Of a stretch of DNA of 64,000 nucleotides, positions 46,655 to 54,800 are shown piece by piece. Each line of letters starts with the position of its first letter. The first letter of the stretch is position 1. The stretch spans positions 41,602,001-41,666,000 of the forward strand of contig OZ260663.1 in the NCBI GenBank assembly GCA_965285935.1, written 5' to 3'. The translations under genes and the position numbers were made by a program. The notes under the pieces are model-generated. The model made no database searches and was not told where the DNA came from. It saw nothing but the letters and a program-made list of their open reading frames with translations. This DNA comes from Ophelia neglecta. Its lineage: Eukaryota.

Positions 46655-47544
46655 AGCCCTAGTAGGTGGCTATTATATAGCGGTTTTGAATATTAGTCCC
46701 TGGTCAATTGGAGATGCCTTGAATAAAAAGGGCTACCTATTGGCTTAAATTAAAAAAGTCTATACGCTATTGTATATTTTGAATTAAGGTTTTTTCGGTA
46801 AACTTATGCCGTTGGAGTCAGATCAAATAATCTTACGTGCTTTTTGTTTTTATTTTGTGTAGCTGATTCAGAATGATACATTGTTAAGATGTGCCTTTCT
46901 TTAGCTTATCCTTTTATCGATAGCTTTTATCACCATCTAAGTATGAATAAACGAACTTCTTGTTAAACTTCCTTTATGCAATACCAATGCGCCAATATCT
47001 ATGTGCTCCAGGTTGCAGTGAACCAAATAGCAGTTATTCCATGCAATGCTGCCCCCTGGTAGGTGTTCCAGAGCTCTCAGAGCAATAATGAAGTGGGCCA
47101 AGCTGGCCTGTTATTGGCCAAAAAAGGCAGAAAACATATCCGGGTTGCCTGTTTTTTTCAACTCGCTCCTCTAGCACACTTTTGTATATACATTTGCTTT
47201 GCTGAATCTTTGGTATTTTTTCCCTAATACATATGCCTCTAGGCAGAACTAGTCGCTATATGCAGATTATTGTTGTGAAAATACGAAAAATGACGTCGAA
47301 AAGCCTCGATTTAACATGTAAGTGATAGGAGATTTATTAAGTTCCCTGCAATCTCCATCTGCGCACATAGCAGGTCATGGCAGTGCATTTATATTGTAAA
47401 ATTTATTCTAAGATACGACAACAATCTGTAGGCTCCTTCAATTCGGTCCGAAAACAATATGAAATCATCCTCTACTAGCCATAACAAACTTCCATGAAGC
47501 CACAAGTGAATTCCTCAAAGCCCTGAGGAGTTATAACGGTTTAA

Positions 47545-47663
47545 AGTTGCTTAAAGTTGGTCGGTCGGTCGGTCGGTCGGTCGGTCGGTCGATCGGTCGG
47601 TCGGTCGGACGGACAACCCGACTACATAATGCCTCCGGACCCTTCGGGGCGGAGGCATAAAAA
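47545..47663 (-). mobile_element. Helentron-associated (DINE-1/HINE-like) element end with (GGTC)n microsatellite
   Basis: The (GGTC)n/(GGAC)n array is followed by the stem-loop ATGCCTCCG...CGGAGGCAT and an A-run, the typical HINE/DINE-1 terminal architecture. Confidence 0.65.
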
Positions 47664-48950: not shown

Positions 48951-49514
48951 AAGGGTTACTACCTATACTACAAGCCCATTAGAGATCCATATGATGGGGT
49001 TGTTTGTAAGAGTATGTTGTTTCATTTATCGTAGTTAGATATAGGGGCGTACTTTTTATTTTACCCATGCAATTGGACCTCTCCCCCCTCCCCTAATTTG
49101 CCGATGTAGCTATCACATCCACTATAATTAGATATATAGCCTAATGCTGTCAGAACGTATGCCTATAGCTACGCAGTATGTAGATCTAATAGTAGACCGA
49201 ATGACACAGGATTTCTTTTTAATGCGGGGACTAATTACTGGTGTAAATTACTGTGAAAGACAATCCAAACCTGAAGAAGCAAACAAATTTCTTACTGATG
49301 CGGGCTAGAACCTACATTATTGCGCATGCGTGGAACTAGAAGGAGGCAAATTTATATTGCTCCTCAAATTTCTTGAATTGGACTAAAATAAGGGCCGCGT
49401 TTTCCCTAAGGGATAACAGGCCGCAGAGCGAAGACTAGTCAGATGCTTCCAAAGTTGTTCACCAAGAAGGTCCATTGGTATTATCTCTATTCTTTAATCA
49501 TCCTTGCCATCAGC

Positions 49515-51817
49515 ATGGGCGACAATGAAGGGGAATCAAAGTCGGACCGAGAGATTCTGTTGGGAATAGCTAAAGACACGGCGTACAACAAACAAAAGCT
49601 GACCAGCTTGGAGAGCAGTTTAGACAAAATACAATCTGACATCTCCGACATAAACGAGCGCATTCAGAGAAACGAGAAAAGCATTACACTTGTGGATCAG
49701 AAAGCTGACAAAAACAAAGGAACCATTGACAAAGTGATCGAAGAGCTAGGCAAGCTGAGAAGAGAATGCAGTGACTGGCATGATAGAGATCAAGCTGCTA
49801 AAATGAAGCTCGAGGTCGACCGACGCGCTGATCATATCGTGATTTATGATATGGAACCATCGGGTACAACGTCGGATATATCTCTTGCAAGAAACCTGCT
49901 GAAGGAATTGGGTTACTCACCTAAGGAGTCTCGTGATATGTGCTTACGTGTGGTAAAACGAGCAAATTCTGAAAACAACAGGAATAAACCCGGACCACTC
50001 ATTGTAAAACTGCAGAGTAGAAATGCATGCCCACAAGTCTTACCAGCCTGTCACGTCTCGTTTAACTCTTGCACTGATTATTATTAGTAAATAAGCTTGT
50101 ACATAATGTATGAATTTTTAGATGTGCTAGTAATATTAGTGATCTTACGATAATATGACGGAATAATTAAATATATGTTTAATGACCTGCATTTTATAAA
50201 TGACTTCCTATTGTTCAGACACCATTATTCATGTTCTACCAAATCTTCGATTTATTTCAATTTAATAAATAATTTAAACTCCATATGGCTGTGTTGACTT
50301 TTGGTTCACCTGAGAAAAATGCAGTATTCGATGTCTTTGATAAAGCAAGGACCGCTGAAATGAGTCACCGCTTTGGTAAAGACGTCCCATTCCCTATACG
50401 TGCTGCGCGTGCTCTCCTGATCCCAAGGGTACATGACCTTCGTAAAATTGACAGCTCCATCAAACTCGAATGGCCAGCACGTCTCCGTGTCGGCCAGGAA
50501 GTGCTATTCGAGTTCTTCGAAGGTTATTCCGATAAACCGGATACCAGAATGATGCAACAGGTAGAATCAGCGGATCTAACAAATTTGGATAGGGTTATTG
50601 CCGAAAGACTCACAGGACAGGGTGAATCTGCCGAGGACCGTCCCAAGAAATGGTTGCCTAAGAAGCGTAAGCTGGCTGGTCCAGACAGCAGTAACCTAGA
50701 CGGGGGACAACCACTAGATGATGATGTAGGTGTAGAAACTGTTAACAATGTCTTAAATTTACTGAGTAAACCAAAAGATGTAAAAAATGTATCAGTCTCT
50801 GCCCCTTCTCACAGAACCATCCGGGTTGATGCCTCCCCTGTTGCTGTAATATCACAGGGCCAAATGCATGTATTTGATATAAATGATGATACGTATGTAC
50901 CAACTTTGTCAGATAAAACCCATGTAATGGACCATGATCTAGATGTAACTAATATAGATATCAGCAAATTGCAGTCTACTCCTACAGTAAACAGAATAAG
51001 AACTTCAAATCGGTTCGCCGCTCTTGATTTTGGTAATGATCTTGAAATGACTTGTATTGATACCAAAAACACCAACACTGTCATTACTACAGCACCTCAC
51101 GACATAGCACAACAAAATACACATGGCATCACTGACAAAAATAAGACACAATCAGACGATATAAATGACAGAGAGGGGGGATCATCAGAATCTGATACTG
51201 GGTTGGATTGTACCATTATTACCAAGATGCCTGCTGGTAGTATCCGACCAAGTAGGCCGCCGGTAACACTCGCTAATAAGGCTTTGTGCAAGAAAACCCC
51301 CTCAAATAAACTACAAGGAAATAAATTTCGAGGTCAGCCACGTAATGTTAACACTAGGCCCCATCCCCCTCAACAAATGTTTGTAAACAAAGACCACCCA
51401 TCCATGGCCACACATAACAGTATGGACAGGCGCCTGTCCAAACGTCCCCAAACAACTGAGGTCAGGTCCCAGGGCATGGTGAATGACCCGGTAAAACAGA
51501 TTAATGATATAACAAAGGCAACTACTTTGGTCAATGTGACACCAACAATTAGTGGCATGAACTCAACTCACAATGCTCTGGCTAGCACAAGTGGCAGCCA
51601 GAGCAACTGTGACCCAAGCTCTCCCGATGCACAAAGTAAAGCTGGTAGTGGTAAATCAATTTGGATAGAAAACAAGGTAAATACCATGCGTGCTAATGCA
51701 TCGAACATACCTCTTACACCAAGCCAGTTTAATCAGGCAACATTACCAGCTCAGGTTGAAAAGAACGCCGGCCCCAGGGGTAGGAAGGGAAAGGGCAAAA
51801 TAAATAAGAAAAAATAG
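49515..51817 (+). pseudogene. LINE ORF1 (about 668 aa once a 289-bp insertion is removed)
   Basis: ORFs 49443-50087 and 50285-51817 fuse to ...PGPLIVKLQSRNA|VFDVFDKAR...KDVPFPIRAARALL when 50028-50323 is removed. Heptad coiled coil, RRM-like region, long low-complexity region and basic C-terminus RGRKGKGKINKK. Confidence 0.75.
50028..50316. mobile_element. Unclassified AT-rich 289-bp insertion with 7-bp TSD inside LINE ORF1
   Basis: AAATGCA duplicated at 50021-50027 and 50317-50323; removal restores the ORF1 frame. Confidence 0.7.
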
Positions 51818-51826
51818 CAATTACAG
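51815..51826 (+). promoter_or_regulatory. Putative stop-codon readthrough signal TAG-CAA-TTA between LINE ORF1 and ORF2
   Basis: AAA TAG CAA TTA CAG matches the UAG-CAR-YYA consensus, and ORF2 continues in the same frame. Confidence 0.7.
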
Positions 51827-54800
51827 GCCAGGGTCCTCGGTGGAGACGGCGCTATCGATATTGTGTCATTGAATGTAAATGGTGCTGCATCAAAGGGTAA
51901 TAACAAACTAGGTAACCGTCGCTTCCGCCAAATTTTAACACAAGGCGATGTGATTTGTCTCCAGAAAACATGGGGAAAGGAAGAGCATCAAATTTACCTC
52001 AAGGGGTACACTGAACTAATCAGTAACAGAAACAATTTACACCCACTTGCGAGGCGAGGGTCTGGCGGTATAGCGGTCTTTGTTAAGGATTTTCTGGCCC
52101 CGTATCTAACCGAAACAAAAAGATCTGAAGACGAGTATATTTGGTTGAAATACAACACACCGGGCAAAGATAAAGATGGGGCAATGCATAAATGGTTCTT
52201 CTGTTGTACGTACATACCACCAGAAAATAGTACAAACAAAACACAAGCCATGGAAATTTTTGATAAATTATCAGACGACATCGTGAGGTTTGAATCAGAT
52301 AACCATGGCTCGAAAAACCATTATGTAATACTTGGCGATCTTAATGCAAGAATGGGTCGCCTACCTGACTTCATAGAAGGTGATGATGATGAGGGTATAA
52401 ATGACATGCTTGACTACACCCCTGACACATTCATGCCCCGTAACTGCAAGGATATTGTACACAATAATTATGGCAAGAAACTCCAAGAACTATGTATTAA
52501 GACAGGTCTGAGAATATTAAATGGCAGAACAGGTGATGATTGTGATGGGAAATTCACCTACCATAGCTCACTAGGCAAGTCCGTTGTTGATTACTGTTTA
52601 ATGTTTGAATCAGACTTTCACCGCATAAAAAAGTTTGAGGTGCAGGACCTGACAGTGTTCTCTGACCACTGTCCTATAAAGGTCTCTATAAACGTCGGCT
52701 TGCCGGATCATGTACCACAAACTTGTACGCCTGACTGGGGTTTGAAATGGGACCAAAACAAGGCTAATGACTTAAGAACAGCCATCACTAAAAACCTGTA
52801 CAAATACCATCTCATTTCTGAAATGAGCGAAAAAGGCGTGAATTGGCAGGTAGATGAATTTACAAAACTACTACAGGAAGACTGCAGAAAGCATATTGGG
52901 GTCGATATGTTCACTCAAAAAAGCGAAAAGCAAATCTCTGTAAATGGAAGACTACCCTGGGAGTCTACCGAGTCATCGGTGCTTATGAAAAACTTCCTCA
53001 AATGGAGGAATGTGTACAGTGGCGCGCTAGACTCCGACCGCCAAAACAAAGAAGCCGCACACGACATGATGATGTTCTACAAAAAGGAACATCGCAAAAG
53101 GGACAAATTCGATAGATATTTGTACCGACAAAAATCAACACGCAAACTCCTCGAATTACAAGCAAAGGATTTGCGTAAATACTGGTCTAAAATAAACACT
53201 ATTGGTAGAAAGGAATGCAACACGCCATCAGTAAGCATAGGTGCGTTGACAGACCAGTTTGAGGCAGTACACAACCCCGCAGACGCTGAAAATTATAAAC
53301 CATCAACTATTACCTTAGCCTATGTCAACAGCGAAGAGGCAAAAGTACCTAAATACCCTGAACTTGACACGGACATCACTCTGAATGAACTGATAAAAGC
53401 TATAAACCATGCCAAGAATGGTAAAGCTGCCGGTCCAGATAAGATATTAAATGAAATTTTAAAGCAATGCACCGAATTACACTCGTGCCTGCTTAAATTA
53501 TTCAATGGTATACTAGGCTCCGGTAGTTTCCCCAAAACCTGGACCACGGGAGAAATCACAGCATTGCATAAAAAAGGCTCTTTAACTGACCCATCGAATT
53601 ACAGGCCAATCACTCTGTTAAGTACCGTGAGTAAACTATTTACCGGAATCTTAACATCACGTATGTCAGACTGGGCCGAAGGCAATGATGTGCTCCTGAA
53701 GGAACAGGCGGGTTTTCGGCCAGGCTATAGCACCCTGGACAACCTATTTATCTTGAGAACACTCGGGGATAGGTGGCGGAGAAAACATAGACCCCTGTAC
53801 ACCTGCATGGTAGATTTTTCGCGCGCCTTCGACCGAGTAGTGCACGAAAATGCCTGGTTCAAGATGATAAGACTTGGTATTAGAGGCAAGTTGATGGATA
53901 CACTAAGATCTATGTACAAATCGGTTAAATCAGTGGTCAAAGACTCTTTGGGTAACAGAGGCAACTCATTCAGGTGTCAATTGGGAGTTAGACAGGGGGA
54001 AAGGGCTTCCCCGATTATCTTTGCCTTTCTACTAAATGACATTGACACGTACCTGCGTGAGAACGCTCCAGATGGGGGAGTAACATGGGAATTACTCAAC
54101 ACCATGATGCTCCTCTATGCTGATGACATGGTCCTTATATCCGAGTCCCCTGATGGGCTACAAGACCAGCTTAATGCGTTGGCCGACTACTGTGACACAT
54201 GGTCTCTCCGCGTCAATATTTTGAAGACGAAAGTGTTCGTCTTTAAGGAGAATAAGGTGCACAGTGAGACCGATTTTTACTTTAAGGGTGACCCACTGGA
54301 AGTGGTTCATAGTTTCACATACCTAGGTACAGTCTTAGCTCCCAATGCCAGCTGGAAAGCAACAAAGGAATATAACCTACTCAAAGCAAAAAAAGCACAA
54401 TATCTTCTAGATAAAAAAGTGTACTACCTTGATCTGCCAATAAGAGATAGACTAAGGTTGTTTGAATCATGTGTTGAGTCAGTCATGCTTTATGGTTCCG
54501 AGCTCTGGGGCCACGAAAGGTGTCCACAGCTCGAGGTCTTACAGTTAGCATACATAAAAAAGCATTTACAACTCCGCACTAGTACACCGACTGACTGGCT
54601 TGTTCTTGAGATAGGTTTCATTCCCATAGAACTCAAGCGTAAACAACGCATCATTAACTTCTGGTCATCTCTATGCGACCCACGCTCGCATAAAACCTGT
54701 CACATCTCTACTACCGGAATGCAAAACAAACAAACACAAATGACTGGTGCAAAGGGGTGAAACAAATTCTGACTGAATACAACATGAGCGAATATTACAC

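Follow-up and report, generated by a model that had tools for sequence, protein, structure and literature searches.

How a long interspersed nuclear element (LINE) obtains the protein of its second open reading frame (ORF2p) from a bicistronic RNA is a long-standing question that has been partly answered for L1 and SART1 only. The question is raised again by a stretch of 64,000 nucleotides of the Ophelia neglecta genome (assembly GCA_965285935.1, contig OZ260663.1, forward-strand positions 41,602,001 to 41,666,000; called here the window, with position 1 as its first letter). A LINE on the plus strand of the window carries open reading frames 1 and 2 (ORF1 and ORF2) in one frame, which is open for 514 codons before and 980 codons after a single TAG at 51815-51817. 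An original prediction, made from the letters of the window, proposed that this TAG is a programmed leaky stop. The comparisons reported here, which are comparisons of sequence, make it likely that ATG-less ORF2 is reached by programmed stop-codon readthrough from the ORF1 frame in the clade to which the window element belongs.

The junction reads AAA-TAG-CAA-TTA-CAG and includes a putative readthrough signal of type I, similar to that of tobacco mosaic virus (TMV), at 51813..51823 (AA-TAG-CAA-TTA). The stop is followed by a linker of 15 codons in the ORF1/ORF2 frame (51818..51862; QLQARVLGGDGAIDI), which contains neither stop nor ATG and runs into VSLNV, motif I of the endonuclease (51863-51877). 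The first in-frame ATG of ORF2 is found at 52184, which is codon 123 after the stop and 107 codons past the start of VSLNV; in these positions the original prediction proved accurate. Only two ATGs occur within 51790-51900, both out of frame and inside motif I, and no copy of the window family supplies one ahead of that motif. Several known solutions were considered for the junction and rejected. Stop-start coupling of the SART1 type fails because there is no ATG at or near the ORF1 stop, and the L1-type spacer with an ORF2 AUG fails because the first in-frame ATG comes only at codon 123. A 2A/StopGo peptide is rejected since the window reads QVEKNAGP instead of D(V/I)ExNPGP, NPGP appears in one copy only, a stop still follows, and a 2A-like peptide is absent from the ORF1 ends of sister families. 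A type III signal, as in Moloney murine leukaemia virus (MoMLV), is rejected for the window since it has UAG-C instead of UAG-G and lacks a 3' hairpin.

Elsewhere in the fetched loci, CARYYA follows 76 of 39,698 stop triplets (0.19%), and it accounts for 34 of 13,140 in-frame hexamers. Because this background exists, one CARYYA site alone is suggestive, being unusual without being decisive, and the case is carried by family data. TAG is present in all five family copies that reach the junction, and TAG-CAA-TTA in four of them. The claim of an exact TMV context therefore stands in part: the complete AAA-TAG-CAA-TTA-CAG is present in the window, but the codon preceding the stop is GAA in the four other genomic copies, and the third codon, CAG (the TMV tail), is not retained in the other 11 families of the clade described below. 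DNA contigs from three runs of one sample, possibly the assembly's own, were also compared with the window, and all 10 differences found in the high-depth contig of run X1 fall outside the signal.

Related families were collected by an endonuclease search of the animal's own genome, in which 134 of 918 candidates were scored and 30 returned loci examined. The addition of 100 stretches (90 further matches, nine of the first 30 extended, and a copy of L005) gave 34 clusters, reduced to 32 families by merging two derivatives, and two more searches (20 stretches) contributed eight new families. The ORF1 stop lies in the ORF2 frame in 36 of these 40 families; ORF2 is in +1 in three and in -1 in none, and one family is untyped. 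Across the 36 in-frame families, the stop is located 13-58 codons before the motif-I Asn, and the frame upstream of it is open for at least 200 codons in some copy in 30 families and for 97-173 codons in the other six. In 23 of the 26 in-frame representatives tested, no in-frame ATG occurs until after motif I, and the first one is often 100-200 codons on. The stop contexts of sister families are mostly TAG-G (GAC, GGA, GAT, GGT, GAG, GGG), TAA/TAG-CGG, TAA-CAC or TGA. As a separate observation, nine same-strand copies of one TAG-CGG family lie within 1.2 Mb (G000:C2:113.2-114.4 Mb); most share internal stops, and they were likely spread by segmental duplication.

The survey bears directly on the reading in which a single long frame is interrupted by nothing more than a nonsense mutation, or in which the host reads TAG and TAA as an amino acid. 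Single copies without the stop do exist (L044, L092, L075 and L088; in the first two TAG is changed to AAG and the frame is read straight through), but each stands alone among siblings that carry the stop, and 36 families stop at the same place. An altered code is contradicted by the unbroken frames of 1799-2010 codons, which hold 51-63 Gln codons and one TAA or TAG, and by ORF2 ends, which use TAA, TAG and TGA. The family-wide stop, which also answers the original concern about a copy-specific mutation, and the codon usage refute this reading, and we assign it practically no probability.

In a quick IQ-TREE analysis of 29 representatives, the window falls into a clade of 12 families with an SH-aLRT of 99 and protein identities of 31-63%; the clade was recovered in further trees, among them a reverse transcriptase (RT) tree from which four rows with insufficient RT were omitted, and FastTree agrees. 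Clade junctions have the form [G/C/A]AA-TAR-CAA-YYA in 10 families, CGG-TTA in one and CAA-TCC in one, with TAG as the stop codon in 10 and TAA in two. Counted by column, AA at -2/-1, C at +4 and pyrimidines at +7/+8 occur in 12 of 12 families, and AA at +5/+6 and A at +9 in 11 of 12. Mean pairwise identity is 0.80 at +4..+9, compared with 0.27 and 0.31 in the flanks. The codon after CAA alternates between TTA, TCA and CCA (Leu, Ser or Pro), with YYA retained. As a control, invariant amino acid columns of the 12 ORF2s were inspected, and only one of 75 (1/39 two/three-fold and 0/36 four/six-fold columns) has the same third base in 90% of families; CAR follows the terminal stop of ORF2 in none of 16 cases. 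Because CAR-YYA is kept while its second codon changes amino acid and third positions are saturated, the alignment indicates that selection acts on the nucleotides of a type I readthrough signal, beyond coding need. This is the pattern that had been proposed as a check, namely a junction conserved across diverged families amid saturated flanks and synonymous sites. The 60 bases that follow the stop showed no hairpin (mean z 0.35; window z 1.07), as expected for a type I signal. Separately, the clade displays a mean folding z of -1.3 to -1.5 at 120-190 bases 3' of the stop in 12 families, absent in sisters; this dip is weak, occurs in one of 23 windows and was not taken as real. The TAG-G sisters show no mean folding excess 3' of the stop in a model that scores hairpins, with pseudoknots outside it.

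AUG-independent termination-reinitiation is the rival to readthrough that deserves the most attention. In this explanation, ORF1p is released at the stop and translation restarts at the next codon or at a near-cognate codon of the linker, giving a separate ORF2p. According to passages of PMC5009743, L1 ORF2 is thought to initiate in a novel AUG-independent way. Reinitiation accounts for the three +1 families without a usable ATG, is compatible with the non-leaky-looking stop contexts of some sisters, and finds CTG, GTG, TTG or ACG somewhere in most linkers. What it does not predict is the distribution of the 39 typed families (36 in frame, three in +1, none in -1), nor the preservation of the readthrough hexamer together with the upstream AA. 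Furthermore, no near-cognate codon occupies a fixed linker position, four of the 12 clade linkers as scored contain no ATG, CTG, GTG, TTG or ACG before motif I, and in L041, the window and others such codons occur only inside the first strand. A restart at the very next codon would be compatible with the sequence, but overall we regard reinitiation as an unlikely source of ORF2p. Much less probable still is RNA processing that frees ORF2, either by splicing into an acceptor-like TTACAG followed by G or by A-to-I editing that turns UAG into a codon for Trp. Window positions 51818-51827 do resemble an acceptor (CAATTACAG followed by G), but no pyrimidine tract precedes them and the CAG is the very codon that the other 11 clade families do not keep, while editing would need two events in the TAA families and there is no paired structure around the stop.

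A long ORF1 with a C-terminal CCHC knuckle sets RTEX (RTE-X) apart from RTE proper, and the window element has both, so that its membership in RTE-X appears likely from its sequence; its RT relatives are named from bivalves. Proto2 is a close alternative, and confusion of the two is noted in passages of PMC10294476. Of the 84 RTE-X entries in the curated bivalve library of that paper, 45 were viewed over their first few hundred bases. Four of the 45 show the region from stop to motif I, and all four have an in-frame TAG-G without ATG; in two, the C-terminal domain of ORF1 lies in this frame as well. Their endonuclease motifs and layout are like those of the window, as judged by eye, which would be in keeping with RTE-X membership. 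Relatives in metagenomes, from unknown hosts, were sought with an RT alignment, the endonuclease alignment being too diverged for the scan. Among 80 loci, 26 were typed (43 had no endonuclease match, 10 were 5'-truncated and one lacked motif I). In 10 of the 26, the longest upstream frame stops in frame 12-47 codons before motif I, with 218-408 open codons upstream in five of these; the contexts include TAG-GAC, TAG-GAA, TGA-CGG and TAG-CAA-GCA, and two of the 10 have a Met three residues ahead of the Asn. In four more loci, where ORF1 is out of view, TAR-GGG precedes motif I by 13 codons. A search of viral contigs returned no relative. Two distant LINE relatives from the metagenomes have more than 740 open codons that end at an in-frame stop, 216 codons (L199) and 97 codons (L177) ahead of motif I.

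A broader proposal can be made, for which we see the chances as evenly balanced: that a deep branch of RTE-X, in bivalves and other hosts, makes no independent ORF2p and relies on a recoded fusion of ORF1p with the apurinic/apyrimidinic endonuclease (APE) and RT, with readthrough classes (CAR-YYA, CGG, TAG-G) swapped along the way and a +1 shift adopted at least twice. The three +1 families have the junctions GGA-TAA-T (L055, family F0), ACC-TAG-T (L122, F8) and GCC-TAG-C (L102, F21); in them ORF1 ends 55-79 bases before the motif-I Asn, and the tree gives them two origins. ACC-TAG-T and GCC-TAG-C presumably resemble the shifty stop of antizyme. Judging from their junctions, the +1 families may follow the same stop-dependent strategy in another frame and are candidates for +1 frameshifting. 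Weak stops are described in passages of PMC9841425 as splitting ribosomes between readthrough and frameshift according to the P-site codon.

Several findings weigh against readthrough as the route to ORF2p, or against its generality. The CAR-YYA families are related by descent and all belong to a single genome, and three of 13 clade families depart from the motif: the CGG-TTA and CAA-TCC families, and F18, a broken 13th family with CAA-TTT/CAA-ATT that was placed by similarity, outside the tree and the 12. None of the 26 typed metagenome junctions has the full CAR-YYA, the nearest contexts being TAG-CAA-GCA and TAG-CAG-ATA (one each). Some in-frame sisters have TAA-AAC, TAA-GAT or TAA-GGG, and TAA-A and TAA-G are contexts that we take to be tight stops rather than leaky-looking ones. 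Because of these contexts, and because the three +1 sisters have no usable ATG, the elements apparently can make ORF2p by other routes too. An ATG does precede the motif-I Asn in two clade families and one sister (codons 12, 17 and 10), at least four metagenome loci have an ORF2 ATG of their own (L140, L146, L165 and L176), and 14 of 39 long database relatives, seen as proteins only, have a Met 6-9 residues before motif I, which may be a gene-caller start. The in-frame, ATG-less arrangement is thus not universal in the group.

For programmed readthrough in the window's clade, a mechanism can nevertheless be outlined. A readthrough rate of a few percent is known for TMV, and in the elements, too, a near-cognate tRNA would read the stop for a few ribosomes in every hundred. 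According to passages of PMC13517186, UAG-CAR-YYA is enough by itself to stimulate readthrough in plants, mammals and yeast, no 3' structure being required, any of the three stops can be used with it in plants and yeast, and the type I motif is not listed for animal viruses. The output would be mostly ORF1p, accompanied by small amounts of an ORF1p-ORF2p fusion about 1850 residues long, or about 1800-2000 when unbroken sister elements are included. The original estimate of about 1850 aa agrees with the arithmetic, which gives 692+1+1179 = 1872 aa from the ATG at 49443 and 1848 aa from that at 49515; unbroken sister elements predict 1799-2010 aa. With the low-complexity tail of ORF1p as a flexible tether, the fusion would assemble with ORF1p multimers on the RNA that encodes it, and such co-assembly could at once set the ratio of ORF1p to ORF2p and establish cis preference. 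Pfam detected no protease domain, so that cleavage of the fusion would depend on the host.

Pfam alone returns only coiled-coil matches on ORF1, but a structural model of the ORF1 of the sister L040 (pLDDT 69.6), to which the window ORF1 aligns, matches human L1 ORF1p in Foldseek (E 2.4e-6, the top 11 rows). On this modelled structure, ORF1p is predicted to have an L1-type fold followed by a long low-complexity tail. In the CAR-YYA clade, ORF1 (window 49443-49514; L037, L040, L041, L042) begins with a hydrophobic, signal-peptide-like leader of 20-24 residues before a second Met (MGD/MPG); its 15-residue hydropathy is 1.65-2.61 in four clade families and 0.13-0.93 in 12 sister families. The leader may serve to direct ORF1p to membranes, or leaky scanning past its ATG may produce two isoforms. 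Another feature is the short motif P-[LI]-[TSN]-P-x-[EDQ]-[FY], kept 35-77 residues upstream of the ORF1 stop although the rest of the tail cannot be aligned (window about 51710-51730; also L037, L038, L041, L042 and L043).

The copy in the window is a full-length LINE, likely RTE-X, at 49321..55906 on the plus strand, with private lesions. Its 5' end is common to two other copies and its 3' end to L046, and no target-site duplication of at least 7 bases was found around the whole element. A 5'-terminal GCGCATGCG motif lies at 49322..49330, and similar starts were seen by eye in three of the 45 bivalve RTE-X consensus entries viewed. The 5' part of ORF1 (49443..50020) comprises the hydrophobic 24-codon leader, the second ATG at 49515, a coiled coil and an RRM-like domain. 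It is separated from the 3' part (50317..51814), with its domain resembling the C-terminal domain and the long low-complexity tail, by a 296-bp insertion of a high-copy repeat at 50021..50316 (no strand assigned), which is flanked by a 7-base target duplication (50021-27 and 50317-23). The insertion is private to this copy: it is missing in L046, the X1 and X2 contigs skip it, and depth spikes at 50021-50316. By eye the repeat has imperfect inverted ends and is possibly a miniature inverted-repeat transposable element. The insertion splits ORF1 in the window copy, the start of which is 49443 or 49515, not 50273. ORF2, which ends at 55356, contains the APE endonuclease (51863..52669; Pfam PF03372, aa 17-284, and alignment), the reverse transcriptase (53567..54331; Pfam PF00078, aa 584-838), whose nearest solved protein is L1 ORF2p (E 2.6e-42), and a C-terminal knuckle Cx2Cx7Hx4C read from the translation (55081..55131); a comparable knuckle is visible in most of 16 family C-termini. 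The element closes with AATAAA and a (GATTT)4 tail (55877..55906), also carried by L046. The hallmarks of a LINE are thus present: APE and non-LTR (long terminal repeat) RT in ORF2, an ORF1p with coiled coil and RRM, a simple-repeat 3' tail, and truncated dispersed copies. The window copy is dead, with the ORF1 insertion, a Glu-to-Lys change in LQETW, a one-base deletion near 54691 and a stop at 54874, and because it is broken, the readthrough claim applies to the family.

L046 itself (G000:C2:57344350-57351850) is an ORF1-only derivative of the window family, known in one copy, in which a deletion runs from directly after TAG-CAA-TTA to the last ORF2 codons, with the 5' and 3' ends retained. 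A spliced copy was ruled out, since there are no GT-AG ends. Another dispersed repeat occupies window positions 47443-47663 and occurs in the flank of L002.

If readthrough is indeed used, these elements offer a third route to ORF2p that depends on a short, mutable signal. The route is open to direct tests, since there are families that are young and unbroken, and variants occur naturally (TAG/TAA, CAA/CGG, TAG-G, +1). A fusion would also mean that the LINE ribonucleoprotein differs from the usual picture, with the polymerase tethered to the ORF1p multimer. Automated annotation would then be truncating these ORF2s, and recoding studies would gain a large, natural collection of readthrough contexts. 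Should the deep-branch proposal be true, gag-pol logic would be the original way in which an entire non-LTR lineage expresses its proteins, and the CAR-YYA clade would hold the first animal retroelements in which long-term selection maintains a type I signal.

Readthrough of a LINE ORF1 stop is not wholly without precedent. In passages of Guerin et al. 2017 (PMC5405496), consensus sequences led to the suggestion that it occurs in Group 3 LINEs of Paramecium, whose ORF1 and ORF2 share one frame, as here, with Groups 1-2 in +1, like three families here; however, these LINEs form a separate ciliate clade, and the passages give no signal analysis or test. LINE reviews, in the parts consulted, give ORF2 expression as reinitiation, coupling and 2A only. 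No report of RTEX or animal-LINE readthrough was found in the searchable literature, which excludes Repbase entries and subscription journals; nothing bearing on readthrough appears in passages of PMC11203168, PMC5753468, PMC8226300 and PMC3905857, and the words readthrough, read-through and translation do not occur in the main text of PMC10294476. The bivalve RTE-X entries of that paper share, by eye, the endonuclease motifs and, where visible, the in-frame TAG without ATG, but their visible junctions are TAG-G, not CAR-YYA. Mammalian L1 and SART1 also have a bicistronic RNA in which ORF2 depends on ORF1 termination, and an ORF1p of L1-type fold (passages of PMC5972666, PMC5009743 and PMC10275272); unlike the present elements, which have no AUG, spacer or overlap, L1 and SART1 (with its UAAUG coupling) use an ORF2 AUG and make a separate ORF2p. 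Readthrough is also known, from passages of PMC13517186 and PMC3441728, in gammaretroviruses (MoMLV, type III) and in the Copia elements Tca2 and VdLTRE5. The likeness to these gag-pol systems lies in structural and polymerase reading frames joined in one frame by one stop, with TAG-G in many sisters, and the difference in a non-LTR element with an L1-type ORF1p, no protease found, and a type I signal in the window's clade. Compared with the type I system of TMV, the host of the signal here is an animal non-LTR retrotransposon, for which readthrough is predicted from sequence; both share the same hexamer, no 3' structure found, the use of TAG as well as TAA, and a polymerase encoded downstream of the stop.

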